From contig CP169074.1 of NCBI GenBank assembly GCA_041891055.1, forward strand, positions 1-64,000: 64,000 bases of DNA. The letters run 5' to 3'. Both the position numbers and the translations under genes were made by a program. Shown in pieces: positions 13,673 through 45,004 of the stretch; position 1 is the first letter of the stretch; each line of letters starts with the position of its first letter. The DNA comes from Halorutilales archaeon Cl-col2-1. Lineage in GTDB: Archaea; Halobacteriota; Halobacteria; Halobacteriales; Afararchaeaceae. The notes beneath the pieces were generated by a model. The model had not been told where the DNA came from. It was given only the letters and a program-made list of their open reading frames with translations, and ran no database searches.

Positions 13673-13722
13673 TCGCAAGATCTCTGATCTTGCTACCCAC
13701 AAATTCGAAGAATTTGTGACTG
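13673..13722. mobile_element. 50-bp double-hairpin mini-element
   Basis: TC-GCAAGATC tct GATCTTGC-tacc-CACAAATTC gaa GAATTTGTG-AC, flanked by duplicated (C)TG. Confidence 0.8.
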
Positions 13723-13730
13723 TATCCCCG

Positions 13731-13835
13731 TGTGCAAATCTCTGATTTGCAGGGCATGACGAGACGCTTCGCGTCTCGTTGCAACCGAAAACGCGTAGCG
13801 TTTTCGAGGACTCAGAAATCAAAGATTTCTGAACG
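13731..13835. mobile_element. 49-bp double-hairpin element carrying a nested 56-bp double-hairpin element (13754-13809)
   Basis: Outer TGCAAATC tct GATTTGCA ... TCAGAAATC aaa GATTTCTGA with CG duplication; inner ACGAGACGC ttc GCGTCTCGT / CGAAAACGC gta GCGTTTTCG with AGG duplication. Confidence 0.8.
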
Positions 13836-13862
13836 CCCTACCCTCGTCGTATAAATCCGACT

Positions 13863-13974
13863 TCAAGCGAATCGGAGTGGTTCGAGACGGCAAGCCGTCT
13901 CGTCATGCCGAAAGGCGCAAGCGCCTTTCGTAGCAATTCGCGTACTCATCGAAAATCTCCGATTTTCGAGACAC
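13863..13974. mobile_element. Further nested double-hairpin elements (boundaries approximate)
   Basis: CGAGACGGC aa GCCGTCTCG and CGAAAGGCGC aa GCGCCTTTCG inside a split GCGAAT..ATTCGC stem, then TCGAAAATC tcc GATTTTCGA. Confidence 0.7.
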
Positions 13975-14073
13975 ATAAAGGACGGGGTTTTAGCCTGTGG
14001 TCTACATAACTTCGGCTCTCCGAGACGTGCGGAAGTAATAAGTCGTGGTTCGACCAAACTAAACTCGGTTAAG

Positions 14074-14370
14074 ATGAACACTCATGAACTCATGAAACAG
14101 GCTGACTGGCAAGACCTTAAAAGAGACGAAGACGGCGAGGTGTCCTTCAGTCATCCCGAGACCGGAGCCGTCTTCTCTCTCGTCGATGTCTCAGGGATGG
14201 AGGGGATGACCGGGGATGTCGAGGGATACTACTGGAGGCTCACAGTCGACGGTGTCGACTACTACGAGGAGATGGGAGAGACGATGGCGAAATGGGACAC
14301 CCAGGACGAGGCTGTCGATGCTCTGAGAAGAGTCGTCGAGGAGTCGGAAGACATCTGGGTTATGATGTAA
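14074..14370 (+). CDS. Hypothetical acidic protein
   Basis: 98-aa ORF with host-like codon usage; its stop abuts the cheC stop. Confidence 0.7.
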   Translation: MNTHELMKQADWQDLKRDEDGEVSFSHPETGAVFSLVDVSGMEGMTGDVEGYYWRLTVDGVDYYEEMGETMAKWDTQDEAVDALRRVVEESEDIWVMM

Positions 14371-14982
14371 TCAGATATCGAGCCTGTCGATGAGGTAGAC
14401 AAAGGAACCGACGTCGGGTATCATGTAGAACTCGAAGTTGAAGTCGCCCTCTGTCTCACCCTCTGTCTCGTCGAACTCCATCACGGTGTCTATGACTATC
14501 GACAGCGAGTCCTCGTGAACGTGTGAGACAACCCTGTTGGATATCTCGTTCCCCGACGATCTCTCGACCTCGGGTGTACTTATCTCTATACTAGTGTCCA
14601 AGGCATTTGCCCAGCCGTCTATGAAGCCCGAAGTAAGGACGTTACAGAGCTCCTGTAGTGCACTCCTGTGTATCCCGTCGATTCCCTCGCCCTCGATCTC
14701 TTCCCCCGTCATCAGCTCCGAGACCCTTCTCGCGGTTCTGGGTGTAAACGTCAGCAGAAACAGACCGTACGGCGGACTGTCCATGTTTATGACGACGTTG
14801 AACTTCTCCTGACTTCCTATCTCGTTTTTCAGATCCCCCGGATCGATAAAGGTCAGACCCGTGACCTCTATCTCCGACTCGACACCCGTGAGCGACTCTA
14901 TGTAGTCGGCGAGTGTCCTGGAGCTCTCCTTGACGAGTGAGTCGATTACCGTGAGCTTACGTATGTCGACGAGTAATGGCAT
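14371..14982 (-). CDS. cheC: Chemotaxis phosphatase CheC-family
   Basis: MPLLVDIRKL, SALQELCNVLTSGFIDGWANALDTSIEISTP. Confidence 0.88.
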   Translation of the reverse strand: MPLLVDIRKLTVIDSLVKESSRTLADYIESLTGVESEIEVTGLTFIDPGDLKNEIGSQEKFNVVINMDSPPYGLFLLTFTPRTARRVSELMTGEEIEGEGIDGIHRSALQELCNVLTSGFIDGWANALDTSIEISTPEVERSSGNEISNRVVSHVHEDSLSIVIDTVMEFDETEGETEGDFNFEFYMIPDVGSFVYLIDRLDI

Positions 14983-15092
14983 TCTCTACCTGAAAAGAAG
15001 ACGATAGCCAAGATAAAATTTGGCTTAGCGCTATCACGAGCCTGAAGTTGTGAGTCCCTTTCTACTCAACAAAACCTAAGAGCGAGAAGAAC

Positions 15093-15163
15093 TGCGTTGG
15101 CCGGGATTTGAACCCGGGTTAAGGGCTTGGAAGGCCCATGTCATACCACTAGACCACCAACGC
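15093..15163 (-). tRNA. tRNA-Gly(TCC)
   Basis: GCGTTGG acceptor stem, GGGC-CT-TCC-AA-GCCC anticodon arm, GGTTCAAATCCC T-arm. Confidence 0.95.
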
Positions 15164-15255
15164 GCAGTACATTCTTGACGTGTTATAAGTATAAGTCTGA
15201 CGGATTGACGATAGGTCTCCGAACCCTATTTATATTACTCGTCACTATACCACGT

Positions 15256-15693
15256 ATGTACGACTCCCTCTCGATCTCCGAACTCGTCTCGTCCCCCCGG
15301 AAGACCGCGCTCCTCGTAGACGGTCCTAACCTTCTCAGAGACGAGTTCGACGTCCGTCTCGAAGACATACGTGAGGTCGCCGAGGACTGTGCGAACCCCA
15401 ACGTCACACGTGTCTACCTCAACCACCACGCGCCGCCGTCTCTCGTCGAGGCTGTCGAGACGAACGGAATGGAGCCAGTCGTGACCTCTGGCGATGTTGA
15501 CGTCAAGCTCTCTGTTGACGCAACTGCGTATGCAGTCGAAGGAGCTGACCTCATCGTGGCGACGAGGGACGCCGACTTCAAGCCCGCTCTCGAAAAGGCT
15601 AACGAGGCAGGGTCGGAGACACGTGTGATCGGCGTCGACAAGGGCTTCTCGTCGGCTCTCGAAAGCGTCGCCGACGACGTAGTCTTTCTCTGA
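15256..15693 (+). CDS. NYN-domain (PIN-like, TIGR00288-type) protein; start ATG 15256
   Basis: LLVDGPNLLR, GDVDVKLSVDA, TRDADFKP, GFSSALESVAD. Confidence 0.85.
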   Translation: MYDSLSISELVSSPRKTALLVDGPNLLRDEFDVRLEDIREVAEDCANPNVTRVYLNHHAPPSLVEAVETNGMEPVVTSGDVDVKLSVDATAYAVEGADLIVATRDADFKPALEKANEAGSETRVIGVDKGFSSALESVADDVVFL

Positions 15694-15724
15694 ATTTGTG
15701 AGTTACTGTTACTACTACTGCTAC

Positions 15725-16198
15725 TCAGTCCTCGGCTGCACCACCTTTTCTGGAGAGGAAGTCCTCGACTTCGATTCTGAGGTACTCGGCGACCCTGTCG
15801 TAGTACTCCCAGAGGGCGTCGTTGAGTTTCTCGCGCGTCTCCCTGTCGGGAATCCCCTCTCCTCTGTAAGTCGTCTTGGGTATCTGTGGATGGTAGGTAC
15901 AGACGACTCGGGGCGAGCCGTCCTCTGAGACCCTCTCCCCCTGTACTATCCCATACTCGGCGGTACCCCAGAGACCCTCGCCCGACTCCCTGTGCATCTC
16001 GGAGTCGATCCAGTCGACTGTACGTATCTCTTCGTCGGTGAGTAACGCGTCCTCGCCCTCGAAAAGTTCGTTGTACGCCCTACGTCTCGCGTCGTAGAGC
16101 CAGTCGTCGAGACGGTCGCGCGCCGCCTGTACGAGTTCCCTCCTGTTCTCTATCTCTATGTCCGTGTCTGTCTCAGTCTCAGTCTCGTCGGTATCCAT
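15725..16198 (-). CDS. Conserved haloarchaeal hypothetical protein
   Basis: 157-aa acidic ORF, motif VVCTYHPQIP. Confidence 0.75.
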   Translation of the reverse strand: MDTDETETETDTDIEIENRRELVQAARDRLDDWLYDARRRAYNELFEGEDALLTDEEIRTVDWIDSEMHRESGEGLWGTAEYGIVQGERVSEDGSPRVVCTYHPQIPKTTYRGEGIPDRETREKLNDALWEYYDRVAEYLRIEVEDFLSRKGGAAED

Positions 16199-16242
16199 CT
16201 CGGATCTACAACGGTCTCGTACCGTATAAATCTACATCCAAA

Positions 16243-17538
16243 TTAGACCACGAAGACTAGGACGAGCCCCGTCGCTACCGCCGGTATGAGGATCTTCGCC
16301 ATCACTATACCGAGACGAGCCGTCCCGAGAGCCACGGCGATCCCTATCTTGACGAGGGTGTTGGTTATCGCACCTATGACTATACCGTTCGCGGCGACAT
16401 CGGACTGTATATCGCCTTCGAGAGCTAGCTTGCTGAGTGAGATAGTGATCGAGTCGACGTCCATGAGTCCTGAGAAGAAGGCTGTGGCGTAGACGCCGAG
16501 GTCACCGAAGTTCTGGCTCGCATTCTCTGAGATGAGGAGTATGATGGCGAAGAAAACACCGAAAGCCAGAGCGGGCTTAAGACGGAACGGGTTTTCGAGG
16601 TCGACTTCGGGAGTCTTCCCCGAGACATCCGTGAAGTAGAGGATGACTGAGAGTCCCAGACCCACGACCGCCATGCCTGCTATGGGGATTCCAACGTTAA
16701 AGAGGAGACTTGTGTTGACTACCGAAATCTCTATGAGCATCCTCGGAAACATAGTCACCGACGCTATCGACGCCGCGAAGCCAGCCGCGTTCGTGAGACC
16801 CGGGTTTATCTTCGCCCTGTTAGCCATCGAGACTGTGGTCGGCGTCGACGAGACGAAGCCACCGAGTATCCCCGTCAGACTCAGTCCTCTCTGAGCACCC
16901 ACTACCTGTGTGAGTAGGTACGCTGAGAAGCTTATACCCGAGACTAGGACCACCACAGTCCAGATGAAACGTGGGTTGAGTCCGAGGAGACTGTCAAGAT
17001 TTCTGTCTGGGAGTATGGGTAAGACGACGAGGGCTACGATTAGGAACTTTGACGCGTTGAATAGCTCTTCCTCGCCGAGACTTCCAGCGAACGAATGTAT
17101 CGGCTTCTTGGCGGCGAGTATCGCCATCGTTATCGTCCCGAGAATCACCGACACAACCAAGCCTTCCTCTGACTGTGTCGCCATTCCACCGTAGACGAAG
17201 GTCAGAAGAGTGCTCACGGACGTGGTTATGCCTCCCGTCCCCCTGTATTTCTCTGTCTCGGTATTATTCTCCACGTTGGTCTCTGTTCCCGGTGTTGGAG
17301 TCTCCTCTATCTGTGACTCAAATATATATCCGAGTGTGGCTAGGACGACGACCCCCGAGAATCCAACCCACAGAATGCCGGGGAAGAAGCTGTTTAACGT
17401 AGCGCCTAGGAGAGCCACGAGGGGGTGTGTCCTGCTTCCCGCGAATACGTGTCCCGGCACACTCTTCTCCCTCTCTATTCCGATCATTCCTCCGACTCCT
17501 ACGGCTACGAGGAACTCAGCCGCGAGAGGCAGATCCAT
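16243..17538 (-). CDS. MgtC/SapB-family membrane protein with DUF4010 domain
   Basis: GGMIGIEREK..FAGSRTHPL, GILGGFVSSTPTT, LENPFRLKPAL, SGLMDVDSIT. Confidence 0.88.
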   Translation of the reverse strand: MDLPLAAEFLVAVGVGGMIGIEREKSVPGHVFAGSRTHPLVALLGATLNSFFPGILWVGFSGVVVLATLGYIFESQIEETPTPGTETNVENNTETEKYRGTGGITTSVSTLLTFVYGGMATQSEEGLVVSVILGTITMAILAAKKPIHSFAGSLGEEELFNASKFLIVALVVLPILPDRNLDSLLGLNPRFIWTVVVLVSGISFSAYLLTQVVGAQRGLSLTGILGGFVSSTPTTVSMANRAKINPGLTNAAGFAASIASVTMFPRMLIEISVVNTSLLFNVGIPIAGMAVVGLGLSVILYFTDVSGKTPEVDLENPFRLKPALAFGVFFAIILLISENASQNFGDLGVYATAFFSGLMDVDSITISLSKLALEGDIQSDVAANGIVIGAITNTLVKIGIAVALGTARLGIVMAKILIPAVATGLVLVFVV

Positions 17539-17578
17539 GGTATATCTCGTGTCTGAGATGTGATTAAGCTTCCGCGTC

Positions 17579-18259
17579 TCAGACCATGTTGCTCAGGACG
17601 TGTGAAACCGAAGCGACCGTCGTCTCCCAGACCGAGAATCCCGCCGTCACGCTCAGAGCAGTGTCAGCCGCGAAGAAGACGAAGAGAGCTGCACCCGCGT
17701 AATGTGCCTTCCTGACGTCGAAGCTGTGGGAGAACCTGTGGAAGAAGAAGGCGTTGGCTATGCTTACGGGAATTATAGCGAGCATCTCACCTACCCAGAT
17801 AGCGGGATGAGCACCGTACTGAGCCGCGAGTCCGATAGTCACTATCTGTGTCTTGTCTCCGAACTCTCCCGCAGCCATCATCACAAATATAGGAAGAAAA
17901 CCGCCCAGGTAGTCAGGGATGTCCCAGCCGAGTACGGAGACGTCGACGTCGTCGTAGACTTTCTCTGCCTCCTCTGGAGTTCCCGAGTCGGGGGCTGACC
18001 TGTATAGGAGCACGGCGAATACCACGAAGAGAGACGCGCTGAAGATGTCGAGGTAGAACTCGGGGAGTGCATCCTTGAGCGCGTTTCCGAGGAGTACCTC
18101 TAAGGCTGTCCAGCCGGCGAATGCGCTTCCGGCGGCGGAGACTACGACGAGAGGGTTGTACCTCGTCGACAGACCCGCTATTATGAGCTGAACCTTCTCG
18201 CCGGGCAGAACCGCTAGCTGTGTCGTGAAGGCTATTAGGAGTATTTCTGTCCAGTCCAT
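17579..18259 (-). CDS. TMEM165/GDT1 (UPF0016) Mn2+/Ca2+ transporter
   Basis: LPGEKVQ and GEFGDKTQ repeats of the E-x-G-D-K-T motif. Confidence 0.88.
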   Translation of the reverse strand: MDWTEILLIAFTTQLAVLPGEKVQLIIAGLSTRYNPLVVVSAAGSAFAGWTALEVLLGNALKDALPEFYLDIFSASLFVVFAVLLYRSAPDSGTPEEAEKVYDDVDVSVLGWDIPDYLGGFLPIFVMMAAGEFGDKTQIVTIGLAAQYGAHPAIWVGEMLAIIPVSIANAFFFHRFSHSFDVRKAHYAGAALFVFFAADTALSVTAGFSVWETTVASVSHVLSNMV

Positions 18260-18267
18260 CTTCTATT

Positions 18268-18975
18268 CTATGTAGTCCCGTGTTGAGACGTCTCTGACTC
18301 GGCTCCTCCCATCTTATCGGCGTTGCTCACGTAGATTCTCTCGGCTATCTCCTCAGGGAGCGACTGCTCACTCTCGTCCTCGACCTCGACGACTACCATG
18401 CCGATGGGAGCCACCTCGACTACCCTCACTACGGTTCCGGGGACTATTCCGGCGTCAGAGAGGTATCTCAGTTTCTCCTCGTCCCTGTCACTGACCCTCT
18501 CGACTACGACTGTCTCGCCCTCCGAGGAGTCCGACAGCGTCTGGGACGTCTCCTCTGTGACCGGGTCGAGGCTTTCGGTCGGTATCGGGTCGCCGTGTGG
18601 ATCGACCTCGGGATCATCGAGCGCCGAGGCAACCTTCCTCTCGAACTCCTCGCTGATATGGTGTTCTAAGACGTCCGCCTCGTCGTGTACATCGGTCCAA
18701 GAGTAGTCGAGGTACTCCGACAGGAAGGTCTCCAAGAGACGGTGATGACGGACAGTTTCGAGTGCGACCTTCCGCCCCTTCTCGGTCAGCCTTACACCCT
18801 CGTACTTCTTCCTGTCGATGAGGCTCCTGTCCTCTAGCTTCTCCATTCCGCTCGTCACCGTCGGGGACGTCACCCCGAGGTGGTCGGCTATCGACGATGT
18901 CTTGACACGCGAACCCGCCTCGTCTTCGAGTTCGTAGATCGCCTTGAGGTAGTCCTCCATAGATGCACTTATCAT
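18268..18975 (-). CDS. DtxR/MntR (SirR-like) metal-dependent regulator with FeoA domain
   Basis: MEDYLKAIY, VRHHRLLETFL, EADVLEHHIS, DPHGDPIP. Confidence 0.93.
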   Translation of the reverse strand: MISASMEDYLKAIYELEDEAGSRVKTSSIADHLGVTSPTVTSGMEKLEDRSLIDRKKYEGVRLTEKGRKVALETVRHHRLLETFLSEYLDYSWTDVHDEADVLEHHISEEFERKVASALDDPEVDPHGDPIPTESLDPVTEETSQTLSDSSEGETVVVERVSDRDEEKLRYLSDAGIVPGTVVRVVEVAPIGMVVVEVEDESEQSLPEEIAERIYVSNADKMGGAESETSQHGTT

Positions 18976-18984
18976 ATAAGCTAT

Positions 18985-18998
18985 TTAGACGCGTCTAA
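18985..18998. promoter_or_regulatory. DtxR/MntR-type operator
   Basis: Perfect palindrome TTAGACGCGTCTAA 10 bp upstream of the regulator start; fits TTAG-N6-CTAA DtxR-family boxes. Confidence 0.65.
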
Positions 18999-19236
18999 TG
19001 ATAAGTATTGTGGAGGCTAAATACACTCGCGCTAAACCAGTCTCACCTGGATGTGATCTCTAATGTGGGGGGAAAGCAATAGGTTATGCCGGCTCACTTT
19101 GGGTTTGTCGAGGTGGGGTTTGGGGAAACTTCTCGAATCTATGCCGGCACTCGGTAATTAGACCGTATGTATACTAAGTCTGTTGTCAGAGGTAATTATT
19201 GGAATAGGACGAGAACAGATGTAATTATTGCCGGAA

Positions 19237-20703
19237 CTACACTCCGTATATCTCGCCGAACTTATCCTCGGCGTATTCGACGAAGGGATTGACGTTGAGG
19301 TCGTCGCCCGTGACACGTCTTATGAGGTCGTCAGTCTCGTACCGCTTGCCGTGTTGGTGTATCTCGTCCTTGAGCCAGTCCCTGAGGTGTGAGAAGTTGC
19401 CTCGGCTTATCTTACCATTGAGGTCTTCTATCTCGTCGTCGGCGGCGTCGAAGACCTGTGCGGCGAGGACTGAGCCGAGCGAGTAGGTCGGGAAGTAGCC
19501 GAAGCTTCCGTGTGACCAGTGTATGTCCTGGAGACAGCCCTCGGCGTCGTCCTCGGGTCTTATTCCGAGGTACTCCTCGACCTTGTCGTTCCAGATCCCA
19601 GGGACTTCGTCGACCTCTATCTCTCCACGTATCAGGTCTTTCTCTATCTCGAACCTCAGTACTATATGCATGTGGTAGGTGAGTTCGTCCGACTCGACAC
19701 GTATGGGATGGGGGGAGACCTCGTTGACTGACCGGTAGAGGGCACCGGGAGAGACTTCGGTCTCCAGGGTTTCGTTCAGCTTAGGCGCGAAGTAGTCCCA
19801 GAAGGCGCGCGACCGTCCGACGTGGTTCTCCCAGAGGCGCGACTGTGACTCGTGTACTGTGAGGTCGCGCGCCTCCGACAGGGGTGTTGCATAGCCTTCG
19901 TCGGGTAGACCCTGTATGTAGAGGGCGTGTCCCATCTCGTGTACAGTAGACATGAGTGAGTCGAGCGGCTTAGTGAACCTCGTGGTCACACGTGCGTCGA
20001 ATGTGTTGCCTGAGGTGAAAGGATGGGGTGAGGTGTCGAGCCTCCCGCGCGAGAAGTCGTATCCCATCTCTTCGAGAGCCGTCTCGGCGAGCTTCCTCTG
20101 TCTCTCGTCGGTGTACTCCGACCCAAGCACTTTCTCGACCTCGACTTCCGACTCCCTTATGTCGTCGATGAGAGGCTTGATAGCGTCTCTGAGGTTGGTC
20201 AGAACTCTCTCAGCGGTTTCGAGGTCAATGTAGGGCTCGAAGTCGTCGAATAGAACTGCGTAGGGGTCTCTGTCGGGGTCTATCTCCTCGGCGTACTCCC
20301 TCTTGAGTTCGACGAGTCTTTCTAGAGTTGGCGCGAACTCGTCGAAGTCGCTCTTCTCACGCGCCTTCTTCCAGACGGGATGTGCGCGCGAAGAGGTGTC
20401 TGATATCTCCTCGACGATCTCGTCGGGAACCTCGACCGACCTCGTGTACTCGCGCTGAATCTCTCTCATGACTGCCTTCTCTTCTTCTCCATTCGGCTCG
20501 ACGGAGTCGAGTATCTCACCCGTCTCGTCGTCGGTCAGTATCTCGTGTTTGATCGAGGAGAGAGTCGAGAGTTCCTGTGCGCGCGCCTCGATTCCTTTTT
20601 CGGGCATCATGACCTCCTGATCCCAGTTAAGCACCGACGAGGCGTTCTCGACGTTACGTATACGTCTCACCCTGTCGACGAGGTCGTCGTAGTCGTACTC
20701 CAT
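19237..20703 (-). CDS. Carboxypeptidase M32 (Taq family)
   Basis: HPF, DARVTTR, HEMGH, HESQS, IRVESDE, GCLQDIHWS, GYFPTYSLG. Confidence 0.95.
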   Translation of the reverse strand: MEYDYDDLVDRVRRIRNVENASSVLNWDQEVMMPEKGIEARAQELSTLSSIKHEILTDDETGEILDSVEPNGEEEKAVMREIQREYTRSVEVPDEIVEEISDTSSRAHPVWKKAREKSDFDEFAPTLERLVELKREYAEEIDPDRDPYAVLFDDFEPYIDLETAERVLTNLRDAIKPLIDDIRESEVEVEKVLGSEYTDERQRKLAETALEEMGYDFSRGRLDTSPHPFTSGNTFDARVTTRFTKPLDSLMSTVHEMGHALYIQGLPDEGYATPLSEARDLTVHESQSRLWENHVGRSRAFWDYFAPKLNETLETEVSPGALYRSVNEVSPHPIRVESDELTYHMHIVLRFEIEKDLIRGEIEVDEVPGIWNDKVEEYLGIRPEDDAEGCLQDIHWSHGSFGYFPTYSLGSVLAAQVFDAADDEIEDLNGKISRGNFSHLRDWLKDEIHQHGKRYETDDLIRRVTGDDLNVNPFVEYAEDKFGEIYGV

Positions 20704-21195: not shown

Positions 21196-21514
21196 CTCCT
21201 CTGAGCACAGCATATCCATAACTCTCGACGGCTCCGGCTTCGACAACCACAGTTACGACCTCGAATCTGTCTACCTCTCTCTTCTACCCGAAGTGGGTGA
21301 CATAGACGGTGACTCGGAGACAACTGTCGAGTACGACGTTCATCAACCGGAGATTGACGCCCAAGCAGGTCAAAGATTCCCAGACGCCGACCAAGGCTGT
21401 CTGAGGATAGAAGTCGAAGCCGACAGCCTGACGTCGCTGAGAGCGGGGCTCAACACGTGGCTGCGTCTCGCGCGTACCGCGAATGAGGTTCTGTCTCTGT
21501 CGACCTCCGACTGA
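21185..21514 (+). CDS. pcc1: KEOPS subunit Pcc1 with a probable 16-aa insertion; start ATG 21185
   Basis: [33 protein letters not shown]; synteny. Confidence 0.85.
21339..21386. mobile_element. Decayed 48-bp double-hairpin element inserted in frame in pcc1
   Basis: GACG direct repeat (21335-38 / 21383-86); TT-CATCAACC gga GATTGACG-cccaag-CAGGTC aaa GATTCC; same layout as the mat insertion. Confidence 0.6.
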
Positions 21515-24853: not shown

Positions 24854-27607
24854 TTACAGCAGGTTCTCTATCGCGTCGTCCTCTGTAACTCCCTCGCGCT
24901 CCGCTCTGAAGTCGACTATTATACGGTGTCGGAGTACAGGAGGAGCCATAGCCTCTATGTCCTCCTCGCTGACGTGTGTGCGTCCCCTGAGGAGTGCGCG
25001 AGCCTTCGACGCGAGGACTAAACCCATGCTCGCACGTGGACTAGCGCCGTACTCTATCTGTTCGTCGTCACGCGTGTCGCCGACTATCCTTATCGCCTTG
25101 TCACGCAGGTCGTCGGCTATCGGAACCTGACGTGTGAGCTCCTGTATCTTCTGAAGCTCGTGCTGATCCATGACCTTCTGAAGCTGTATATTGTCGTCGA
25201 GACTCTTAGTGTACCTGTCGACTATCTCGACCTCCTCGTCGAAAGACGGGTAGTCGAGGACTATCTTCATCAGGAATCTGTCCGACTGAGCCTCTGGGAG
25301 AGGGTAGGTGTTGTGGTTAACCCCACACGCACCAAGTCCTGCGACGTAGTTGTGGCTCCCCGGGACTGAGAGACCTATGACAGAACCCTCGTACTCCTCC
25401 TCCTCTATCTGGGTGATGGGGTCGTAGAAGACGTCTGAGCCGACTAGTTCTCTGAGATACTCGGTCAGGTTTTCGGCTTCCTCAACACGTGACGAGTACT
25501 CGTCGGCGACGTACTCGACGGCTTCGGGCTCTTCCCTCTCGCCCTCGTAGGTCTTCCAGACTGCGTGTTTCGAGAGCGAGGTATTCTCGACTACCTGTGT
25601 CATCGAGACTCCACAGCCGTCTGCTATCTCACCCACATCCATTTCGTCTATCTCGGCGTTCTTTCTCTCATCGACCGTCTCCTCCATCTCAGTCACGAAC
25701 GAGTCGAGGTAGGAGTTAGCCATACGGTCGCGTTTCGTACGTGCCCATCTGTACGAGTTGTACCAGTCCTTCGAAGACACGTCGTCTACGCCGAGCATCT
25801 CGACGAGCCTCTCGGCTGCTTCGGAGTCGACAGGCGTGGTTCTGTGTGCCGAGTCGAACTCCTCGGCGTCAACGTCGGGTTCGTCACCTCGCCACTCGAA
25901 CTCTTCGGTGTACTTAGCTACGTCCTCGCCCTGTATACGTATCTCGTATGCGTCCTCTCTCTCGTATATCCACGGCAGTATACCGAAGCTGAGGAGAAGA
26001 TGTGCGACGAGGTTCGTAGTCTCCCTGTCCTTCTGTTTGAACGTGATTCTCCTCCTCTCACCGTCGAAGTGTGACTCGGTGAGTACGAATATCTCAAGGA
26101 ACGACCTCCTGAACTCCTCGGGTGCGCGCAGAAGACGGTTCGGCTCGTCTATGCTGTAACGTTCTCTGAGGTAGTCGACGAAGGGCTTCGAACTGATCTT
26201 GACTTCCTTTCCTCCTTTCTGTCTCGTCGTGTAGTCGAGTCCCAGTCTCTCGGCTATACCGATCCATCTTTCGAGCTTCTCAGTCAGGTTCTTCTGTGTG
26301 ACTCTCACCCCTGTGTCGGAGACTGATCCCTCGGCGAGAACGAATCCCACGAAGAAGCCCGCCTCCTCGTCGGTCATCTCGTCGTCGAATCTGTGTACCG
26401 TATGAGACTCGACGTAGTCGGCTTCTCTAATCTCAGAGTCTCGAAGAGCCTCACGTATCTCTTCACCGACTCTTGTCTGAGTTCTGGAGCCGTCGAGATG
26501 TCTCAGAACCTCGTCGTACGACGCCGACGTTATCTGAGACAGCTCCTTCTTCGAGAGACCCGACGCTGTCCTCAGACTGTCGAGTTCGTCGTGTGAGAGG
26601 TCTTTGTCCGCCCTCAGACGCTCGGTGAGACTCGTCACCTCGTCACGTCTCACGACACTGTACTCATCCCTGTCCGAGACTGAGTCGAGTGCTTCGTCGT
26701 GGCTCACGAACTCGCCGCTTCCTAACTCTAGCTTACGCGGTGTCACTAGATGGTCGCCCTCGTCGAGGTTGCGCGCCTTGACCCAGCTTATGACTCCCGA
26801 CCTGTTGACGAGGAAGGGATGGTTGTCCGAGACACGTATACGTCTCCCAGTCTTAGTCTCGAAGCTGTATATTTCGCCCTCGTAATCCTTCTCGTAGACC
26901 ATACAGTCGGTCTCGACCATCTCTCCCTCAGGATTCAGCGTCTGTGTCGTGGCGTCGATGTCGTAGAGACGCATCTCCACCCCGTCTCCTTCATCCGTCT
27001 CCGTCTCTGTCTCTCTCTCGTGTACCACCTCACCGTTCTGTCTCGCGTGTTCGAGTGCTTCGCTCGCTTTCCAGAGCTTACCGTTCATGTAGAGACTCTC
27101 GTCGGGATGTAGACTCCCTTCCTGGTCTATCGGGTTCTGTGTCGCGAGAACGAAGAAAGGGCGCGGCAGGTCGTAGGTATCACCGCTCGCAGTGACCTGT
27201 TTCTCCTGCATGGCTTCGAGGAGTGCTGCCTGTGTCTTAGGCGTCGCCCTGTTTATCTCGTCTGCGAGGACGATGTTGGCGAATATGGGACCTTTCTGGA
27301 ACTCGAACTCCTTCCTCGTCCCTGTGTCACGTATGACCTCCGTCCCGGTTATGTCCGACGGCATCAGGTCGGGGGTATTCTGTATACGTGAGAAATCGAG
27401 ATCTATGACGTCCGAGATAGTCCGTATCATCAGAGTCTTACCCAGACCCGGGTTACTCTCAAGCAGAGCGTTTCCGTCACATAACATCGTGGCGAGAACC
27501 TGTTCGAGAACCTCGTCCTGACCCACTATCTTCTTCGCTACCTCGTCCTTTACCTTCTGCATCTTCGACTGTACCTGTTGTAAGTTGTGAGAAGACCTGT
27601 CAGCCAT
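24854..27607 (-). CDS. moxR: MoxR AAA+ ATPase precursor containing an intein (spliced product about 315 aa)
   Basis: ESNPGLGKT Walker [46 protein letters not shown]|...|[19 protein letters not shown]. Confidence 0.93.
25310..27115 (-). mobile_element. 602-aa intein with LAGLIDADG homing endonuclease and two HTH-like inserts
   Basis: Begins SLHPDES, block B SDNHPF, LAGLIDADG-like [12 protein letters not shown] and [13 protein letters not shown], ends HNYVAG..VNHN followed by +1 Thr; removal restores [11 protein letters not shown]. Confidence 0.93.
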
Positions 27608-28601
27608 TATTATCACTTCCGCTTCTTATACGTACGTTGTATTCCTTTACGAGATCCGCGTCGTCTATCTTCTGCTGTTCCTCGAAGCCCGCTTGCTGTG
27701 ACTCGACCCCACCGCCGTTGCCCGAGTATCCGCTTGAGTCGTACTCCTCGGGTGAGGCTCCGCCGCCTGAACCCGAGCCCCCTCCACCCCGCTGCAAAGT
27801 GGCGTCGAGGTTCTGGGATCCCGACGAGACGTCCTCTGCCTCGCCTAAGACGCTGTCACCCGACTGGAGACCCTGGTATCCGGAGCCTCCCTGTCCTCCG
27901 CCGGCTCCCCCGCCTCCGCCGCCGCCGCTCGACTGTGAGGTCGACGAATCGGAACCCAGGATTCCCGACGGCGAGTTGAGCGCGGGCTGGTCGGAGTACG
28001 TCATGTAGAATGCTCCGATAGCCATCCCGAATATGAGGAGTATGCTGACGAATATACGTCTGTTGCTGAGTAGACCCGCGCTCGATGTCGAACGTAGACG
28101 TTCGACGACATCATCGTAGAGCGCAACAGCGACCGGGTTTTCGTCGTCCTCTTTCTTAGCGATGTCCCTCGCCGTCCTGAGAGCCTCCTCAATCTCGGGG
28201 TTGACTGACTCGAACTTCTCAACCTCGGAGTAGACGTAAGCACGGTAGGCGAAGCTCACCACGAAGACGACGACTCCGACGCCGAGTGTCACGAGAGCAC
28301 CCCCCGAGGGCTCTATTGGCGACTCGACAGGTGAGGCTCCGATAGACGCGAAAGCCGAGTTCATGAGAGACAGAACTGACGACGGAATCGGAACCGTGAC
28401 CGAATCGGGTATCTGGCTTATCTCGAAGAGAGCGAGAAGAAGGTTGGTCGCCATCAAGACGAGAGAAGAGTCGACGACCGCATAGATAAACGAAGCCTTG
28501 TAGCCCTCGCGACGTATCTCCTTGAGCGCCTTACGTATCTTCTTACGCTCGTTCTCGACTGAGACCTCGGACGACGACTTCGAAGCGCTTGCTCGTGACA
28601 T
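27600..28601 (-). CDS. Membrane protein of the MoxR cluster with Gly/Ser-rich extracellular linker
   Basis: 3 TM segments, [13 protein letters not shown] motif, poly-G/S region; operonic overlap. Confidence 0.8.
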
Positions 28602-35350: not shown

Positions 35351-35554
35351 GCCTCAGACAAGACGCGGAGACACTTACATCTTCAGTTTGGACACCGGCG
35401 TGAGAGTTATACGTCCTCAGTCTCCAAACTCTTCCATGGCATCTGTTAGCATCAGTATACCCGACGAGATACACGACGAAGTTCTCGAGTACGCCGAGAA
35501 ACATACCGAGTCGGTCGATCAGGCTTACGTGAAGTACCTCGGGGACAAGCCCCG

Positions 35555-35652
35555 TCACAAGATCTCCGATCTTGTTGGCACGTCAAACAAAGTTTGACGA
35601 ACGTCACGAGAACTTCGTTCTCGCGGGCTCGCAAATCTTCGATTTGCGAACG
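35555..35652. mobile_element. Two tandem 49-bp double-hairpin mini-elements
   Basis: CG|TC-ACAAGATC tcc GATCTTGT-tggca-CGTCAAAC aaa GTTTGACG-AA-CG|TC-a-CGAGAAC ttc GTTCTCG-cgggct-CGCAAATC ttc GATTTGCG-AA-CG. Confidence 0.85.
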
Positions 35653-35967
35653 AGGCTTCGCCGTTTTGGGTCTGCACCGCACCCGCAGGCGAATTTAATT
35701 CCTCCCGACCTTGTGCATCAGCACTTGGCTGGAATTAACACCCGAACACCTCGATAGTGTCCGTGGGAGTCGGTCGCTCCACCACGACCCGATAGTGCCC
35801 GTCTCACCGCCGTAGCGGGTTTTTGAGAGGCACCACATTTCCATAGTTTACTCAGTCAGCGTTGGATTAAGGTCTTTAACCCGTCTTTGGAGTTTTTCTG
35901 ACTGTTACTCTACTATGCGAACCGTGGTTAGTTAAAAGTTCGTGTCGGCTTCACCCTCGGGGTCAAG

Positions 35968-36018
35968 TCAAGGAAAATCTTTGATTTTCCGTATCCCAAA
36001 AAGCTCTGCTTTTTGAAG
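35968..36018. mobile_element. 51-bp double-hairpin mini-element in the loop of the IS left-end hairpin
   Basis: TC-aa-GGAAAATC ttt GATTTTCC-gtatcc-CAAAAAGC tct GCTTTTTG with AAG duplicated; removal restores perfect CCTCGGGGTC aa GACCCCGAGG. Confidence 0.85.
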
Positions 36019-36157
36019 ACCCCGAGGCACTCGCCTTGCTTTCTGTAGAACTCGTTGAGTTCGCACTCAACAACGTCGAACATGACCCCGACGAGGACAC
36101 CTACATAATGTGACTCTAACGGGACTGTTTTTAGTGCCCAAGCCGTACTCCGAGTAA

Positions 36158-39043: not shown

Positions 39044-39071
39044 CTTATTCTATTCTTATGACGTCTCAGAC

Positions 39072-39398: not shown

Positions 39399-40316
39399 CT
39401 ATTCGTACTCTATCGTCGCAGGTGGCTTGTGTGTGACGTCGTAGACGACACGTGCGACGTTGGGATGTGCCCCCGTTATCCTCGACTGTATCCTCTGGAG
39501 GCTCTCCCACGGTATGTCCATCGCCTGTGCGGTCATTCCGTCACGTGACTCTACGGCTCTCACGGCGACTATCCAGCCGTGAACCCTGTTGTCGCCCTTG
39601 ACTCCCGTGCCCTTTCCTACGACTGCGGCGAGAGCCTGCCACGGGTCGAACTCCTCGACCTCCTCCTCGACGACTGCGTTAGCCTCGCGCGCGACCTCTA
39701 GCTTCTCCTCTGTGACCTCGCCTATCACACGCACTGCGAGACCGGGTCCCGGGAAAGGCATCCTCTCGCTGATGTCCTCGGTGAGACCGAGTGCACGCGC
39801 GACCTCACGTACCTCGTCCTTGTAGAGCTCTCTCACGGGCTCGACGAGTCCCTCGAAGCTTATGACCTCGGGGAGACCTCCGACGTTGTGGTGGCTCTTT
39901 ATTCCACCCTCGCTCTCTATCCTGTCGGGGTATATCGTACCCTGGACGCAGTACTCCGCCTCGACCTCTGAGGCGACCTCCTCGAAGACACGCATGAACT
40001 CCTCTCCTATTATCTCGCGTTTCTCCTCCGGATCTGTGACTCCCGAGAGTGCGTCTAAGAACCTCTCTCGCGCGTCGACTATACGCAGACTCTCCATGTA
40101 GTCGAATGTCTCACGTATCTCGTCGGTCTCGCCCTTCCTCATCAGACCCGTGTCGACGTAGATAGGCGTGAGACGGCTGCCTATTGCCTCGTAGGCGAGT
40201 GCCGCGCTCACAGCCGAGTCGACGCCTCCCGACAGGGCTATGACGGCGTGACCGTCGCCGACGTCTTCCTTTATCTCCTCTACCGCTTCGTCTATGAAAC
40301 TGTCTGTGTCTACCAT
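39399..40316 (-). CDS. guaAb: GMP synthase subunit B (ATP pyrophosphatase)
   Basis: [48 protein letters not shown]. Confidence 0.96.
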
Positions 40317-40330
40317 CTTTGTAATCTCCT

Positions 40331-41953
40331 TTATGCCTCTATCCTGGCACCGTGTTTTCTTTCGAGCGCTGCCTCCACGAGCCCTACGAATACGGGGCTC
40401 GGCTTACCCGGACGTGACTTGAACTCGGGGTGGAACTGTGTGCCGACGAAGTAGGGGTGTTCGTCCTGTGGGAGTTCGAGTATCTCCATACGGCTGTTCG
40501 AACGTCCCGAGAAGACGAGACCGTTTTCCTCTAAGACGTCTATGTACTCGGGGTTGACCTCGAACCTGTGTCTGTGTCTCTCGCTCACCGACCTCGCGCC
40601 GTAGAGGCTGTGTGCGAGGCTGTCCTCGTCTATCTGAGTTTCTTTTTCGCCGAGACGCATCGTTCCTCCCATATCCTCGACGTCGTACTGTTCGGGGAGT
40701 ATGTCTATCACGGGATTCGGAGTCTCCTCGTCTATCTCTGTCGAGTGTGCACCGTCTAAGCCGACGACGTTACGTGCGTACTCGACGACAGCCATCTGGA
40801 AGCCGAAACACAGTCCTAAGAAGGGAACACCGTTCTCACGCGCGTACTTCACGGCGTTGACCTTGCCCTCTGTTCCTCTCTCGCCGAACCCTCCGGGAAC
40901 TATCAGACCGTCGACTTGACGTAGCTTCCTCCTGTCTTCCTCCTCCATGTCCTCGGTGTTGACCCAGAGAACCTCCGTCTCGACGTTGTGTCTCAGACCC
41001 GCGTGTTTGAGAGCCTCGTGTACGGAGAGGTAGGCGTCCTCGAACTCATACTTCCCCGCGAGGGCGATCTTGACAGTCTCGTCGGTCTCCTGTGTCACCG
41101 TCTCGCGCCAGTCTGTGTTCATCTCGTCGGCTTCCGACTCCAGACTGAGCTCCGACATCACGTACTCGTCCATTCCCTCGTCCTCAAGCGTGAGGGGAAC
41201 GTGATAGATGTCATCGACATCCGGCGTGCTTACGACTGCGTCGGTCGGTACGTCACAGAAGAGACTGATCTTCTCGCGCGTCTCGTCTTCGAGCTTGTCC
41301 TCCGATCGTCCCACGACTATGTTGGGATGGAGACCCAGCTCCCTCAGCTCCTTCACGCTGTGCTGAGTCGGCTTAGTCTTCTGTTCGCCGTTGTTAGTGA
41401 GAGGAACCAGAGTTACGTGGACGAGTAGGAAGTCGTCTTCGTCCTCCTCGTTGTGCATCTGTCTCACCGACTCAAGGAAAGGCATTCCTTCTATGTCTCC
41501 GACTGTTCCGCCGAGCTCTATTATACAGATGTCCTCATCGTCTCCCGCTTCACGTATACGTCTCTTTATGTCGTCGGTGATATGCGGAATTATCTGTACG
41601 GTCTTCCCGAGGTAGTCCCCCGACCTCTCACGGTCTATGACGTTGCTGTAGACCTTCCCAGTCGTGACGTTGTGGTCGAAGGTCATGTCGATATCGAGGA
41701 ACCTCTCGTAGTTGCCGAGATCGAGGTCGACCTCTCCGCCGTCCTTGAGGACATAGACCTCACCGTGTTCGTACGGGTTCATAGTCCCGGCGTCGACGTT
41801 GAGATAAGGATCGATCTTGACCGCGGTCACGTCGAAGCCACGGTTCTTGAGAAGCCTCCCCAACGACGCCGCAGTGATGCCCTTCCCGAGTCCGGACATC
41901 ACACCTCCGGTCACGAATATAAACTTAGTATCAGTATCAGACTCCTTCGGCAT
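40331..41953 (-). CDS. pyrG: CTP synthase
   Basis: [39 protein letters not shown]. Confidence 0.98.
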
Positions 41954-42032
41954 ACTATCTGTAGGGAAAACCGGTTGAAAACTGTTGCTACTGGACTGGA
42001 ATACGCGAAATGTTGACGTATATGTGAGTGAG

Positions 42033-42479
42033 TCAGAACTCGTCTTCCGAAATCCGTGTCACAGTCACGTCGTCGGTGTCGTAGAGGTCGTACTCGGGAG
42101 GCTCCTCCTTGCCGTATACCGGCTCACGCAGTTCTCCGTCGACCACGCCTCTCACGAGGTAGTACTCCGTCGTATCCTCGGGATCGACATCCCTCTCGTA
42201 GAGCTTCCGCGCGAGAGACCGCGAGAGCCACTCGTGGGTGCTCACGCTCGGCTCCAGAACCTCGGAGAATCGCGCGTACCTCGTGAGGTACCAGTCGAGA
42301 TCGTTGAGAGACGCGAGTGCACCTCCGAGAGAAGACGTGCGGTATACGACCGAGTTACGTATCTCTACCTCAGACTCGACGCGGTCATACGACGAGAGTG
42401 CCTCGCGTGCGGTCTCACTCGTGACTAACTCATACTCCAGACTGACGTCCTCCCTTCCTATTATACGTACGCGTGTCAT
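42033..42479 (-). CDS. DUF5804-like archaeal protein
   Basis: [29 protein letters not shown]. Confidence 0.75.
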
Positions 42480-42480
42480 C

Positions 42481-43710
42481 TCAGTCCCGTCTCACGCGAA
42501 CTTTCTCCGCTCTCTCAACGGCGTCGGAGACGAGCAACCCAACATCGGTGCTTAGACTCTTTTCCTTCTCACGTACCTTTTCGAGGTCGGCGTGTGTCGT
42601 CGGATGGTGGGGGGCGAGCGACGCACATCCCTCGTCTATGTCGACTGTCGGATACGTTCCTATCACCCTCGCCTTCGCCGTAATCTCGGTCTTGTCACTT
42701 CCGAAGAGTGGTCTGTGTACGGGCATACCGACCGCCTCCGAGGTCACACGGAGGTTTCTCGCCGTCTGGCTCGACTTCTGCCCTAGCGACTCCCCTGTGA
42801 CGATACCCTCGGCGTCCTCCTTCTTAGCTATCGCCTCGGCGATCCTCAGCATGATTCTCCTGTAGATGATCATCCTGTCACGTTCGACCTCGTCGAAAAG
42901 CTGTAGGAGTATCTCGTCGGTCGGGACTCTCCAGATCTCGTCGACGTCGGGAGCGTACCTCGACAGAGACTCTACGGCGAGACGCGCCCTCTCGAAATGG
43001 TCTTCGCCTACGAGGGGGTCGAGGTCGAGGTATATAGGCACGAGGCTCGAACCCCGTCTCAGACTGTACCAAGCCGCGACGGGCGAGTCTATTCCGCCGC
43101 TTACCAAGCCGACTGTCCGTCCCTGTGATCCCACGGGAAGACCGCCGACACCCTCCATCTCCTCGACGTAGACGTAAGCCGCGTCTTCGCGCGCCTCTAC
43201 GCCTACCGAGAGGTCGGGATCATCGAGGTCGACCTCAGGCGCGTCTATCGCTTCCCAGACCGCGTCTCCTATCTTCCGTCCCATATCCTCGCTGTCGAAC
43301 GAGTGGTCGCCTGCCGACCTCGGACGTACTGCGAACTTCCCCGAGTCGAATCCGACTGCCTTTACGAGGCTCACCGCGGCGCCCTCCATCTCGTCCATCT
43401 CTGGGGATACGCGTCTTGCGGGAGAAGTCCTCACGACACCGAAGACGTCGGCTACCGCCTCAGCTGCGTCTACGACGTTATCGGAGTCTACGAAGAGACG
43501 CCCCCACTCGACCTCTATTCCGTTGTACTCAATCTCTCTGTCGTCGAGCGTGAGACGTATTCTGTCGGCTAAGAGACGCTGGAGACGTGACCTCACTGAG
43601 CTACTCTTGTTGCCTACCTCTCCGTAACGCACGAGGACTGTGTCGTACAGAGCCTCGGCTTCGACGTCTTGGGTCTCCTCGGCGTCGTTTCGTTTCGTGT
43701 CGGCTCTCAT
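42481..43710 (-). CDS. thiI: tRNA 4-thiouridine sulfurtransferase ThiI
   Basis: LVRYGEVGNK, THUMP domain, GGLPVG, SGGIDSPVA, TGESLGQKSSQT. Confidence 0.93.
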   Translation of the reverse strand: MRADTKRNDAEETQDVEAEALYDTVLVRYGEVGNKSSSVRSRLQRLLADRIRLTLDDREIEYNGIEVEWGRLFVDSDNVVDAAEAVADVFGVVRTSPARRVSPEMDEMEGAAVSLVKAVGFDSGKFAVRPRSAGDHSFDSEDMGRKIGDAVWEAIDAPEVDLDDPDLSVGVEAREDAAYVYVEEMEGVGGLPVGSQGRTVGLVSGGIDSPVAAWYSLRRGSSLVPIYLDLDPLVGEDHFERARLAVESLSRYAPDVDEIWRVPTDEILLQLFDEVERDRMIIYRRIMLRIAEAIAKKEDAEGIVTGESLGQKSSQTARNLRVTSEAVGMPVHRPLFGSDKTEITAKARVIGTYPTVDIDEGCASLAPHHPTTHADLEKVREKEKSLSTDVGLLVSDAVERAEKVRVRRD

Positions 43711-43747
43711 CTGTGAAAAGATACGGTTGAGACTCTTTTAACTCTGG

Positions 43748-45004
43748 CTAGAAAGTCGACATCTCGCCGTGTATTATGTCACGTGTGAGGTCAGTCACAT
43801 TTTCGAGGGCGTCGTCTGTGATCGACTCTATCTCGTACTCGACGTCGGAGAGTTCGACGCCTTCCTCTGTCTGAACCTGGAGACCGGCTATCTGTGGCTC
43901 GTCTATCGGCTTTCCTATCTGTGACAGGAGCTTTACCCTCAGGTCTTCTATGCCGTCGACCTCGTCGACGACCTTCCTCGCTATACGTATCGAGAGGAGG
44001 TTGTAGATCTTGCCTATGTGGTTGACGGGGTTCTTTCCGCTCGTGGCTTCGAGGCTCATGTTCCTACTCGGGGTTATGAGACCGTTGGCGCGGTTGCCCC
44101 TTCCGACGCTTCCGTCGTCTCCCATCTCCGCGCTCGTTCCCGTCTCTGTGAGGTAGAAAGTCCCCTCGTCCCGAGGACTCTTTGAGTCCTCGTGTGCACG
44201 CGAATCTTCAGATTCGCGAACGTCGTAGTCGTCGGCGGTGTTGACTGCGACGTTGAGGTCTCTGTCAGTGTGTTTCTCGGCTGTCGAGGCAACGAACTCC
44301 CTCACGTCCTCCATCACGCTGATATACTCGTCGGCGTCCTCGACGTACTCCGAGACCGTCGCCGCCGCGACCGTGAGATCTAACGTCTCGCCCTCGCGTT
44401 TCCCCATCACTTTGACGTCCTCTCCCACCGCGGGAATCTCGTGTCTCAGGTCTTCGTAGATCTGTGTCTCGGTCTCGTAGACTACCTTCTCGGTCTCGGA
44501 GAAGGGCGCGTGACCCACTCCGAACGAGGTGTCGTTTGCCTTCGGAACCGCACCGTCCTCGAGCTTGAAGACGTCCTTGAGATCTGTCGACCCCTCGCCC
44601 ATACGTACGTCGACGACGACCTCGGATTCAAGGTCGATATTCTGGAGAGTGTCGTCGATATAGTCGCGTGCCGCCTTGACAGCGAGGGTGTCGGTGGGTA
44701 TCGCCTCGCCCTCGAACTCCTTAGTCGCCCTTCCGACTATCAGGACGTAGATCGGCTCGACGACCTCACCGCCACCGAAGTCGGGCTGGCTCCGTCCTGC
44801 GACCAACTGACACTCATCTGTGTTGTGGTGGAGGACAGCACCGAACCTGTCGAGGTACTCCTGAGACAGCGCGCGCATCACCGACTCCGCAATGCCGTCA
44901 CAGATAGAGTCGGGATGTCCCATTCCCTTTCTCTCGGCGAGCTCGATCCTCTGTTGATCCACAGGGATCTCGTCGAGAGACTCCACTCTTATATTACGCT
45001 CCAT
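43748..45004 (-). CDS. mat: Archaeal methionine adenosyltransferase with an 18-codon insertion (start ATG 45004)
   Basis: [56 protein letters not shown]. Confidence 0.96.
44171..44224. mobile_element. 54-bp double-hairpin mini-element inserted in frame in mat
   Basis: CGTC direct repeat (44167-70 / 44221-24); CGAGGACTC ttt GAGTCCTCG-tgtgca-CGCGAATC ttca GATTCGCG-AA; removal gives ADDYDEG. Confidence 0.85.

Follow-up and report, generated by a model that had tools for sequence, protein, structure and literature searches.

Double-Hairpin Units with CGTC Flanks in a Haloarchaeal Chromosome Segment: Probable Minimal Mobile DNA with Counterparts in Other Archaea

The described elements closest to those considered here are the PATEs and small mobile repeats (SMRs) of haloarchaea, the CGTC-tagged REPs, the REPIN/RAYT system, and the double-hairpin elements of Allomyces. 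We analyzed the first 64,000 nucleotides of contig CP169074.1 of Halorutilales archaeon Cl-col2-1 (the window in what follows), which contain about ten units of 44 to 53 nt, each with two perfect hairpins and too small for coding capacity. These units miss defining features of each described family, yet they work like them.

The PATEs of Haloquadratum walsbyi include 52-bp "terminal-only" derivatives of IS605-type elements, apparently mobile, with a deletion between two near-terminal palindromes, one palindrome retained, and, in the available part of their description, no target duplication (PMC3119063). Like the units, PATEs are haloarchaeal, of similar, noncoding size, linked to IS200/IS605 elements, and have palindromes at their ends but no inverted terminal repeats; both have a targeting sequence (4 to 6 nt in PATEs, CGTC in the units) at the 5' side, in one orientation. 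What sets the units apart from PATEs as described there is that each has two different hairpins located 1 to 2 nt from its ends and the same tetranucleotide on both sides. The same source describes SMR-A and SMR-B of Haloquadratum as 80 to 110 bp long and bounded by prominent inverted terminal repeats; copies of one type are more than 95% identical, and the elements show no target duplication and an "enigmatic" mobilization that prefers the near-terminal palindromes of PATEs and IS605-type transposons (PMC3119063). The short mobile repeats of Haloquadratum, without a known mechanism, that an initial annotation of the window had mentioned therefore do exist. The units are likewise small and noncoding, and they too occur in tnpB, omega-RNA regions, and hairpin loops, but they are only 44 to 53 nt long, with divergent stems and no terminal inverted repeats.

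The CGTC-tagged REP superfamily, which includes RPE-4 and RPE-6 of Rickettsia, is bacterial only and has no known dedicated transposase, as far as the available text of its description extends (Di Nocera et al. 2013, PMC3733652). It shares with the units an unpaired CGTC (or TGTC/CCTC) end tag, stems of 8 to 9 bp that vary within a family, and in-frame copies in genes, which in the REPs add 20 to 30 amino acids. These REPs are described as having loops of 4 to 5 nt, A-T pairs at stem positions 1 and 2, and a 3-nt tail (CCA), and as being mostly head-to-head dimers (PMC3733652). In contrast, the units have archaeal hosts, mostly 3-nt loops, varied stem starts, and TGG or TGT rather than CCA after the first hairpin, and their hairpins lie between two direct copies of CGTC, with one pair of units (W5 and W6 below) arranged head to tail.

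In REPINs, two short hairpins make up one mobile unit, a Y1 enzyme supplied in trans recognizes a hairpin together with its flanking tetranucleotide, and the stems show compensatory changes. The units resemble REPINs in having two hairpins per unit, the combination of hairpin and tetranucleotide, and compensatory stem changes. However, a REPIN consists of two inverted REPs that fold into one long hairpin, with a GTAG tag, and RAYTs are known from bacteria, whereas the hairpins of the units are not inverted copies, the tag is CGTC, and no Y1_Tnp domain was found in the open reading frames (ORFs) scanned. The elements of Allomyces mitochondria are reportedly short two-hairpin repeats with evidence of mobility and no known enzyme. 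The available text of PMC3787672 cites Paquin et al. 2000 for them; they belong to fungal mitochondria, and there is no evidence that they share ancestry or end motifs with the units. No description of archaeal double-hairpin units was found in the literature searched, which left most subscription journals outside. The available part of the RepRanger study reports palindromes of a generic, intergenic kind from six archaeal genomes outside the haloarchaea and contains no such units (PMC12306157).

Structure and sequence of the units

A scan of the window for perfect hairpins (stem of at least 7 bp, loop of 2 to 6 nt) found 39, and 17 of these, with stems of 7 to 10 bp, were inside the intervals in which the initial annotation had placed double-hairpin units. 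They were arranged as follows (coordinates are those of the window):

Hairpin starts, first cluster: 13675 and 13698; 13733, 13759, 13786, and 13812; 13883, 13909, and 13949
Hairpin starts, other clusters: 35557, 35581, 35607, and 35629; 35972 and 35997; 44172 and 44199
13673..13722, plus strand: unit W1; hairpins 13675-13693 (8 bp) and 13698-13718 (9 bp), linker of 4 nt, CTGT at both flanks
13731..13835, plus strand: four-hairpin array; hairpins 13733-13751, 13759-13779, 13786-13806, and 13812-13832, right end AACGCC
13863..13974, plus strand: composite; outer stem 13867-13872/13936-13941 around hairpins 13883-13902 and 13909-13930, then hairpin 13949-13969
21339..21386, minus strand: decayed Pcc1 copy; in frame in pcc1, 16 amino acids, sense-strand GACG at 21335-21338 and 21383-21386
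35553..35605, plus strand: unit W5; CGTC 35553-35556, hairpins 35557-35575 and 35581-35599, AA, CGTC 35602-35605
35602..35654, plus strand: unit W6; hairpins 35607-35623 and 35629-35649, right end ACGAG
35955..36027, plus strand: unit W7; hairpins 35972-35990 and 35997-36015 in the loop of a 10-bp inverted repeat, 35955-35964/36018-36027
44167..44224, plus strand: unit W8; CGTC 44167-44170 and 44221-44224, hairpins 44172-44192 and 44199-44218, in the S-adenosylmethionine (SAM) synthetase gene

Chance levels were estimated with 200 first-order Markov shuffles of the window. When only stems of 8 bp or more with loops of 2 to 4 nt were counted, the window had 21 hairpins, compared with 5.0 ± 2.1 in the shuffles (maximum 11). 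Adjacent pairs (stems of at least 8 bp, gap of at most 10 nt) numbered 8, compared with 0.005 (maximum 1). The double-hairpin units were indeed present where they had been placed. A scan that tolerated mismatches found 10 adjacent doublets (mean of 0.77 in 30 shuffles), every one with 0 mismatches; all 17 doublet hairpins were perfect and none had a single mismatch. When folded as single-stranded DNA (ssDNA), all six intact regions had z scores between -4.8 and -7.5 (for example, -7.45 for W1, -7.13 for the four-hairpin array, -5.33 for the composite, -5.08 for W7, and -4.82 for W8), and none of 200 shuffles folded equally well. The pcc1 copy, which the initial annotation had called decayed, no longer folds (z scores of +0.5 and +0.3). 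The feature is real and strongly nonrandom.

The loop is 3 nt long in 14 of the 17 hairpins and is closed by a 5'-C...G-3' pair in 16 of them, or in all 17 if hairpin 44199 is read with a 4-nt loop, in agreement with the initial description of mostly C-NNN-G triloops. The 5' arms are A-rich and T-poor, which is true on both strands because the stems are palindromic.

Alignment of the units, including those from genome collection loci that are designated here by L numbers, revealed a directional order: CGTC and one base come first, followed by hairpin 1, a linker that resembles TGKGC, hairpin 2, AA, and finally CGTC or CGCC. The linker is 4 to 7 nt long (the initial annotation had given 4 to 6 nt), mostly TGKGC plus 0 to 2 bases. 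The units have a polarity. Of 11 orientable units, the Pcc1 copy included, 10 have a loop that begins with T in hairpin 1, which is the one adjoining the 5' CGTC. The two ends of a unit are not inverted repeats of each other, and the two hairpins of one unit have different sequences and show no pairing between them. Immediately 5' of W5, W8, the Pcc1 copy, and the units of L020, L046, L087, L089, and L091 there is a CGTC, and flanks of the CGTC type are also found in L107. In W1 the tag is TGTC. The right-hand tetranucleotide is CGCC, versus CGTC on the left, in L020, L046, and L089.

Some units are combined with others. W6 follows W5 head to tail, with one CGTC in common. One reading of the four-hairpin array is that its second and third hairpins, joined by TGCAAC, form an inner unit within the linker of an outer unit. 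In the composite at 13863..13974, the fold pairs an interrupted 6-bp outer stem, so that an inner unit splits the stem of another hairpin. This inner unit is related to the one at 13759-13806, and the differences between the two are matched on both arms, including a change from one base to two. The nested readings of the initial annotation are plausible in light of this fold and of the location of W7 within the loop of an inverted repeat.

Pairing is conserved while stem sequences differ. Because ARATC-NNN-GATYT as a search pattern constrains no more than the five innermost pairs, pairing farther out is independent of how the hairpins were chosen. This core matches the window seven times, versus 0.43 expected, and in these matches the next three positions outward are complementary in 21 of 21 cases, with three different bases at each position. 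The pattern TCRNAAATC-NNN-GATTTNYGA, used for the genome collection, leaves two positions free, which by chance would both be complementary in 1 match in 8. Among the 47 archaeal matches listed, positions 4 and 18 are complementary in all 47, with four pair types, and positions 3 and 19 are complementary in 44. These results support conservation of pairing, as initially proposed. However, sequence is conserved as well, in the ARATC-NNN-GATYT core (seven hairpins), the TGKGC-like linker, the AACGYC right end, and the polarity. Hairpin 13812 is 100% identical over 21 nt to hairpins in six loci (L020, L046, L075, L079, L091, and L114), and 35971-35992 is identical to positions 129-150 of L096. 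Thus, of the initial interpretation, insertion and conserved pairing stand, but conservation "in structure, not sequence" was an overstatement.

Units inserted in genes

Comparison with homologous proteins indicates that the units are insertions, because the three copies found in genes have homologues with empty sites; the initial annotation's view of the units as inserted, mobile DNA was upheld in this respect. W8 adds 18 amino acids, in frame, to the SAM synthetase encoded at 43748-45004 (minus strand). The addition is absent from all eight aligned homologues and from PDB 4l4q. The closest homologues are 67 to 68% identical by BLASTP (70 to 72% in a multiple alignment), which suggests that close relatives are scarce. 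The insert of 54 nt corresponds to W8 plus one CGTC. The protein alignment alone permits two placements of the gap, and the DNA favors the one that leaves both hairpins whole. The predicted structure of the protein with the insert is poor (mean pLDDT of 50.3), and the position of the insert is not readable from the model.

The Pcc1 protein has 16 extra amino acids that are absent from three of three homologues, one of them 77% identical, and the gap corresponds exactly to the 48 nt at 21339-21386. The minus strand of the decayed copy retains CGTC, the remnants of two hairpins, and AACGTC. A covariance model of the kind that the initial annotation had proposed (R1) was built from haloarchaeal units. 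R1, which was not trained on the Pcc1 copy, located it at 21336-21386 on the minus strand with 17 bits and a rough E value of 0.014, its top match outside the training sites. The training units W1, W5, W6, and W8 scored 37.5, 36, 49.8, and 61.9 bits, respectively. With filters off, the Pcc1 copy was the only match in the window outside known sites with an E value below 0.1; the next matches had E values of 0.14. A window scan for further decayed copies, anchored on CGTC...RACGYC flanks, detected nothing above shuffles beyond W5 and W8.

The third gene is a tnpB (Pfam OrfB_IS605) at locus L087, from a metagenome-assembled genome (MAG) of Haloferacaceae, in which a unit adds 19 amino acids in frame. 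The insert is common to four aligned homologues (P0127, P0130, P0132, and P0141), two of which are from Haloferax sp. Q22 and Natrarchaeobius chitinivorans, and is absent from five others (P0134, P0152, P0148, P0142, and P0169). As a separate observation, P0127 and P0141 have a second insert of 19 to 20 amino acids near the C terminus, rich in Ser, Glu, and Asp and with the peptide signature expected of a GAATC...GATTC hairpin.

At the inferred empty site of each of the three genes, GACG is present once on the sense strand, and at the filled site it is present on both sides, so that the insert lengths of 54, 48, and 57 nt equal units of 50, 44, and 53 nt plus 4. All three genes are antisense to the CGTC strand of the element. 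Of the positions in the window, 1.3% have CGTC and 0.05% have AACGTC. The initial annotation had described flanking duplications of 2 to 4 bp; repeated flanks are present, but they are mostly one specific tetranucleotide, CGTC. This second tetranucleotide may be either a true 4-bp duplication or a CGTC or CGCC end that belongs to the element. Because a blastn comparison of all 119 collection loci with the window gave only hairpin-sized matches (21 to 45 nt), the empty sites are defined at the protein level only. It is very likely that the units are mobile insertions with CGTC as their target.

Occurrence in other archaea and association with IS200/IS605-family DNA

Contigs of a genome collection were searched with the pattern TCRNAAATCNNNGATTTNYGA, which gave at least 119 loci. 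These loci, among which the source genome of the window is not listed, were selected on one hairpin type and are a partial sample. Perfect 9-bp palindromes make up 44 of the 47 archaeal matches listed, and in 34 of the 47 another perfect hairpin lies no more than 10 nt away. Units of the same grammar occur in other Halobacteria, in methanogen-type archaea, and in DPANN. Those of Halobacteria (L020, L046, L087, L089, L091, and L107) have the same flanks, linker, and partner hairpin as the window units. Methanobacterium, other methanogen-type MAGs, and Woesearchaeota have arrays of up to seven such hairpins. Another 33 perfect hairpins, 30 of them with A-rich 5' arms, are present in the 2-kb flanks of the methanogen-type loci, where 4.8 would be expected.

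R1 was run on 100 of the 119 loci (all but L101 to L119). It recovered two methanogen-type sites that the pattern had not selected, L050 1511-1565 (42 bits) and L005 122-177 (42.5 bits), which have GNGCC or TGGC linkers and flanks other than CGTC. Many R1 matches of 20 to 25 bits are the pattern-selected single hairpin, and thus R1 cannot separate double from single hairpins below about 30 bits.

Many bacterial matches (Oscillospiraceae, Faecousia) are built differently. In seven loci from such MAGs (L006 to L008, L039, L080, L081, and L097), a GTCAAAAATC-type hairpin is 1 base from a CCTCCC...GGGAGG-type hairpin, often as inverted pairs. A Sedimentisphaerales MAG (L060, 2823-2900 and 3877-3930) has arrays of related 8-bp hairpins of the CACGGGCA and CATCGGCA types with 3-nt loops, which look like another hairpin-repeat family. 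Hairpin units also lie about 10 to 270 nt from tRNA genes at L114 424-512 (minus strand) and L015 1841-1924 (plus strand); the tRNA match in L114 has a 14-nt unaligned insert in the variable region.

Many units are within or beside DNA of the IS200/IS605 family. The Rfam family sot0042 represents what is now called omega RNA, a small RNA located at the 3' end of tnpB genes of the IS1341 type. Two features of this kind were found in the window:

13336..13486, minus strand: omega-RNA remnant (sot0042); 47.3 bits, E value of 2e-11, full model length, below the gathering score of 88
35661..35780, plus strand: possible decayed C-terminal piece of tnpB between W6 and W7; local tblastn match, 40% identity over 42 amino acids, one stop codon

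The omega-RNA remnant, separated from the first hairpin cluster by about 190 nt, extends over the predicted start of a cheF-like gene (12360-13340) and has an internal stretch of 31 nt where the family model has 5 positions. Its presence shows that this IS family once resided in the source genome. A tblastn search of the window with 40 haloarchaeal TnpB proteins found no tnpB coding remnant beside it. The match at 35661..35780 is not significant (E value of 0.25) and has no Rfam match, yet it is the best near the units.

In L046, a double hairpin lies within a sot0042 match, in its variable internal stretch, and L020 has the same flank. The terminal omega-RNA hairpin of L046 has the same geometry as the units (8 bp, 3-nt loop, C-G closing pair). 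The sequence of L096 resembles an omega RNA in which hairpins occupy two internal positions, and its HgcC match is weak. In addition to the unit within the tnpB of L087, a TnpB remnant is found beside the units of L091. No RAYT-like gene was found among 59 window ORFs and 107 ORFs beside the archaeal matches listed. When the TnpB piece of L087 was compared by tblastn with a phage collection in search of a TnpA-bearing ISH1-8 on a halovirus, no haloarchaeal virus was among the 25 matches listed.

The window is a segment of a haloarchaeal chromosome with 55.8% GC in which archaeal CheF, TbsP, and DUF75xx families are present. GC skew along the window tracks the gene strand, and no replication direction was obtained. 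A gene for a MoxR-type AAA ATPase (24854-27616, minus strand) is split by an intein, which includes a homing-endonuclease domain of the LAGLIDADG type (Pfam AAA_3, Intein_splicing, LAGLIDADG_3). At 48517-53320 (plus strand), a carbonic-anhydrase-like gene is followed by genes for a DabB-like proton-antiporter subunit and DabA (a probable inorganic-carbon transporter); such a cluster is unusual in a haloarchaeon. Two convergent PIN-domain genes (1138-2147) have an AT-rich, perfect 8-bp hairpin (1596-1613) between their ends.

Possible mechanism and biological meaning

The units are probably non-autonomous mobile DNA, a minimal PATE or REP type that is recognized as single-strand hairpins. Their movement in trans on ssDNA by an IS200/IS605-type Y1 (HUH) transposase is a possibility that we favor tentatively, at somewhat short of an even chance. 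Under this mechanism, the hairpins would form on ssDNA, such as the lagging-strand template, and a dimeric Y1 transposase supplied in trans would bind the two hairpins with its two arms. The strand would be cut beside the tetranucleotide, and the element would be pasted immediately 3' of CGTC in a new single strand. If the element itself ends in CGTC, the result would be an apparent site duplication, possible precise excision, and the possibility of a second, head-to-tail landing. Copies in genes would persist only if they were in frame and free of stops. Perfect pairing would be kept either because mobility is selected for or because template switching occurs between the arms of quasi-palindromes, a process that is known from bacteria. 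The many perfect hairpins, the absence of any with one mismatch, and the single, badly decayed genic copy suggest either fast loss of damaged copies or such template switching.

Single-strand transposition by Y1 enzymes, as in IS608, yields a nonpalindromic target in one fixed orientation. A Y1 enzyme is favored because two hairpins suit a dimer, the target is nonpalindromic and used in one orientation, terminal inverted repeats are lacking, IS605-type sequences are neighbors, and the 52-bp PATEs provide a precedent. The initial annotation had left the enzyme unnamed. None was found in the ORFs scanned, but given the IS remnants and the PATE precedent, it may be an IS200/IS605 transposase.

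Several observations weigh against this mechanism. Classical IS200/IS605 elements produce no target duplication, their left and right cleavage sites differ, and their hairpins are about 10 to 20 nt inside the ends, whereas the hairpins of the units are nearly terminal and the same tetranucleotide is present on both sides. The units in methanogen-type and DPANN loci have flanks other than CGTC, and clean CGTC flanks are missing from the inner nested units and from W7. Units are not uniformly oriented with respect to IS parts, the CGTC strand being the omega-RNA strand in L046 and the strand opposite tnpB in L087. The association with IS remnants may be partly a sampling artifact, because copies borne by multicopy IS elements are oversampled by a pattern search. 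Finally, a Y1 transposase domain (Y1_Tnp) was found in none of the 59 window ORFs and none of the 107 ORFs beside the archaeal matches listed.

The same tetranucleotide on both sides in the three gene insertions, in W5, and in W1 (CTGT/CTGT) is also what would be expected of ordinary MITEs moved by double-strand cut and paste, with a DDE transposase that prefers CGTC and duplicates 4 bp of target, and one DDE transposase gene does lie near the L010 match. This explanation seems improbable: no terminal inverted repeats were found in the units, there is no DDE gene among the 59 window ORFs, and elements land in one orientation, judged by loop and linker polarity, although the target is nonpalindromic. 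In addition, the right copy often differs from the left (CGTC versus CGCC in L020, L046, and L089), which fits an element-borne end better than a duplication. Most copies are intergenic, which would suit host cis-acting elements, that is, RNA or DNA hairpins for transcript 3'-end formation, mRNA stability, or protein binding that were spread by selection rather than by a transposase. In Haloferax volcanii, hairpins and an AGATC motif give partial termination, according to the available text of a study of this species (PMC7237163), and AGATC is found on both strands of window hairpins 13675 and 35557; in AT-rich methanogens, 3' arms that are T-rich on either strand could also serve as two-way archaeal terminators. 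However, the reading frames of SAM synthetase, Pcc1, and tnpB are unlikely places for such signals, most window stems lack a run of five T's, and no Rfam family matches the units. Such functions could be acquired after insertion, but they leave the spread unexplained, and we consider there to be only a slim chance that cis-acting function accounts for the units.

It is still less probable that the units are nonmobile palindromes made locally by snap-back or template-switch synthesis during repair or replication, which we regard as very unlikely. That every intact hairpin is perfectly paired and that related copies differ by changes matched on both arms would be consistent with such synthesis, but the arms are not copied from local flanks. 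Furthermore, the same hairpins, linker motif, and end motifs recur at unrelated sites and in unrelated genomes, and the covariance model from haloarchaeal units finds methanogen-type units that were not selected by the pattern (L050 and L005). A broader proposal, unlikely but less so than these alternatives, is that the units belong to an archaea-wide, structure-defined family of single-strand mini-transposons (Halobacteria, methanogen-type Euryarchaeota, and DPANN) with a mobilizing activity of its own rather than a borrowed IS200/IS605 TnpA. Such a family would undergo arm-to-arm correction, would colonize IS605-type palindromes, omega-RNA regions, and tnpB, riding on or disabling them, and would add short acidic loops to essential proteins.

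Insertion, with three empty sites, is established here, as are CGTC specificity, fixed polarity, the lack of terminal inverted repeats, covariation, and association with the IS200/IS605 family. The parts of the Y1-based reading that we infer are the action on single strands, which enzyme is responsible, and how the arms are corrected.

The units look like archaeal relatives, so far undescribed, of the small palindromic repeats that are mobile in bacteria. If confirmed, they would be among the smallest mobile elements known (about 45 to 50 nt), and several archaeal lineages would for the first time be shown to have a family of this kind in common. Their spread over these lineages and the in-frame copies in core genes are reasons for interest. 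Because the units insert in frame in core genes (SAM synthetase and Pcc1 of the KEOPS complex), in tnpB, and in omega-RNA regions, they can affect annotation, protein alignments, and haloarchaeal TnpB systems. The total lack of hairpins with one mismatch offers a natural system in which to study how cells maintain perfect palindromes. The clean four-base target, CGTC, makes the enzyme that moves transposase-less hairpin repeats directly testable, and the same question of which enzyme is responsible applies to the bacterial CGTC-tagged REPs and to the small mobile repeats of Haloquadratum.

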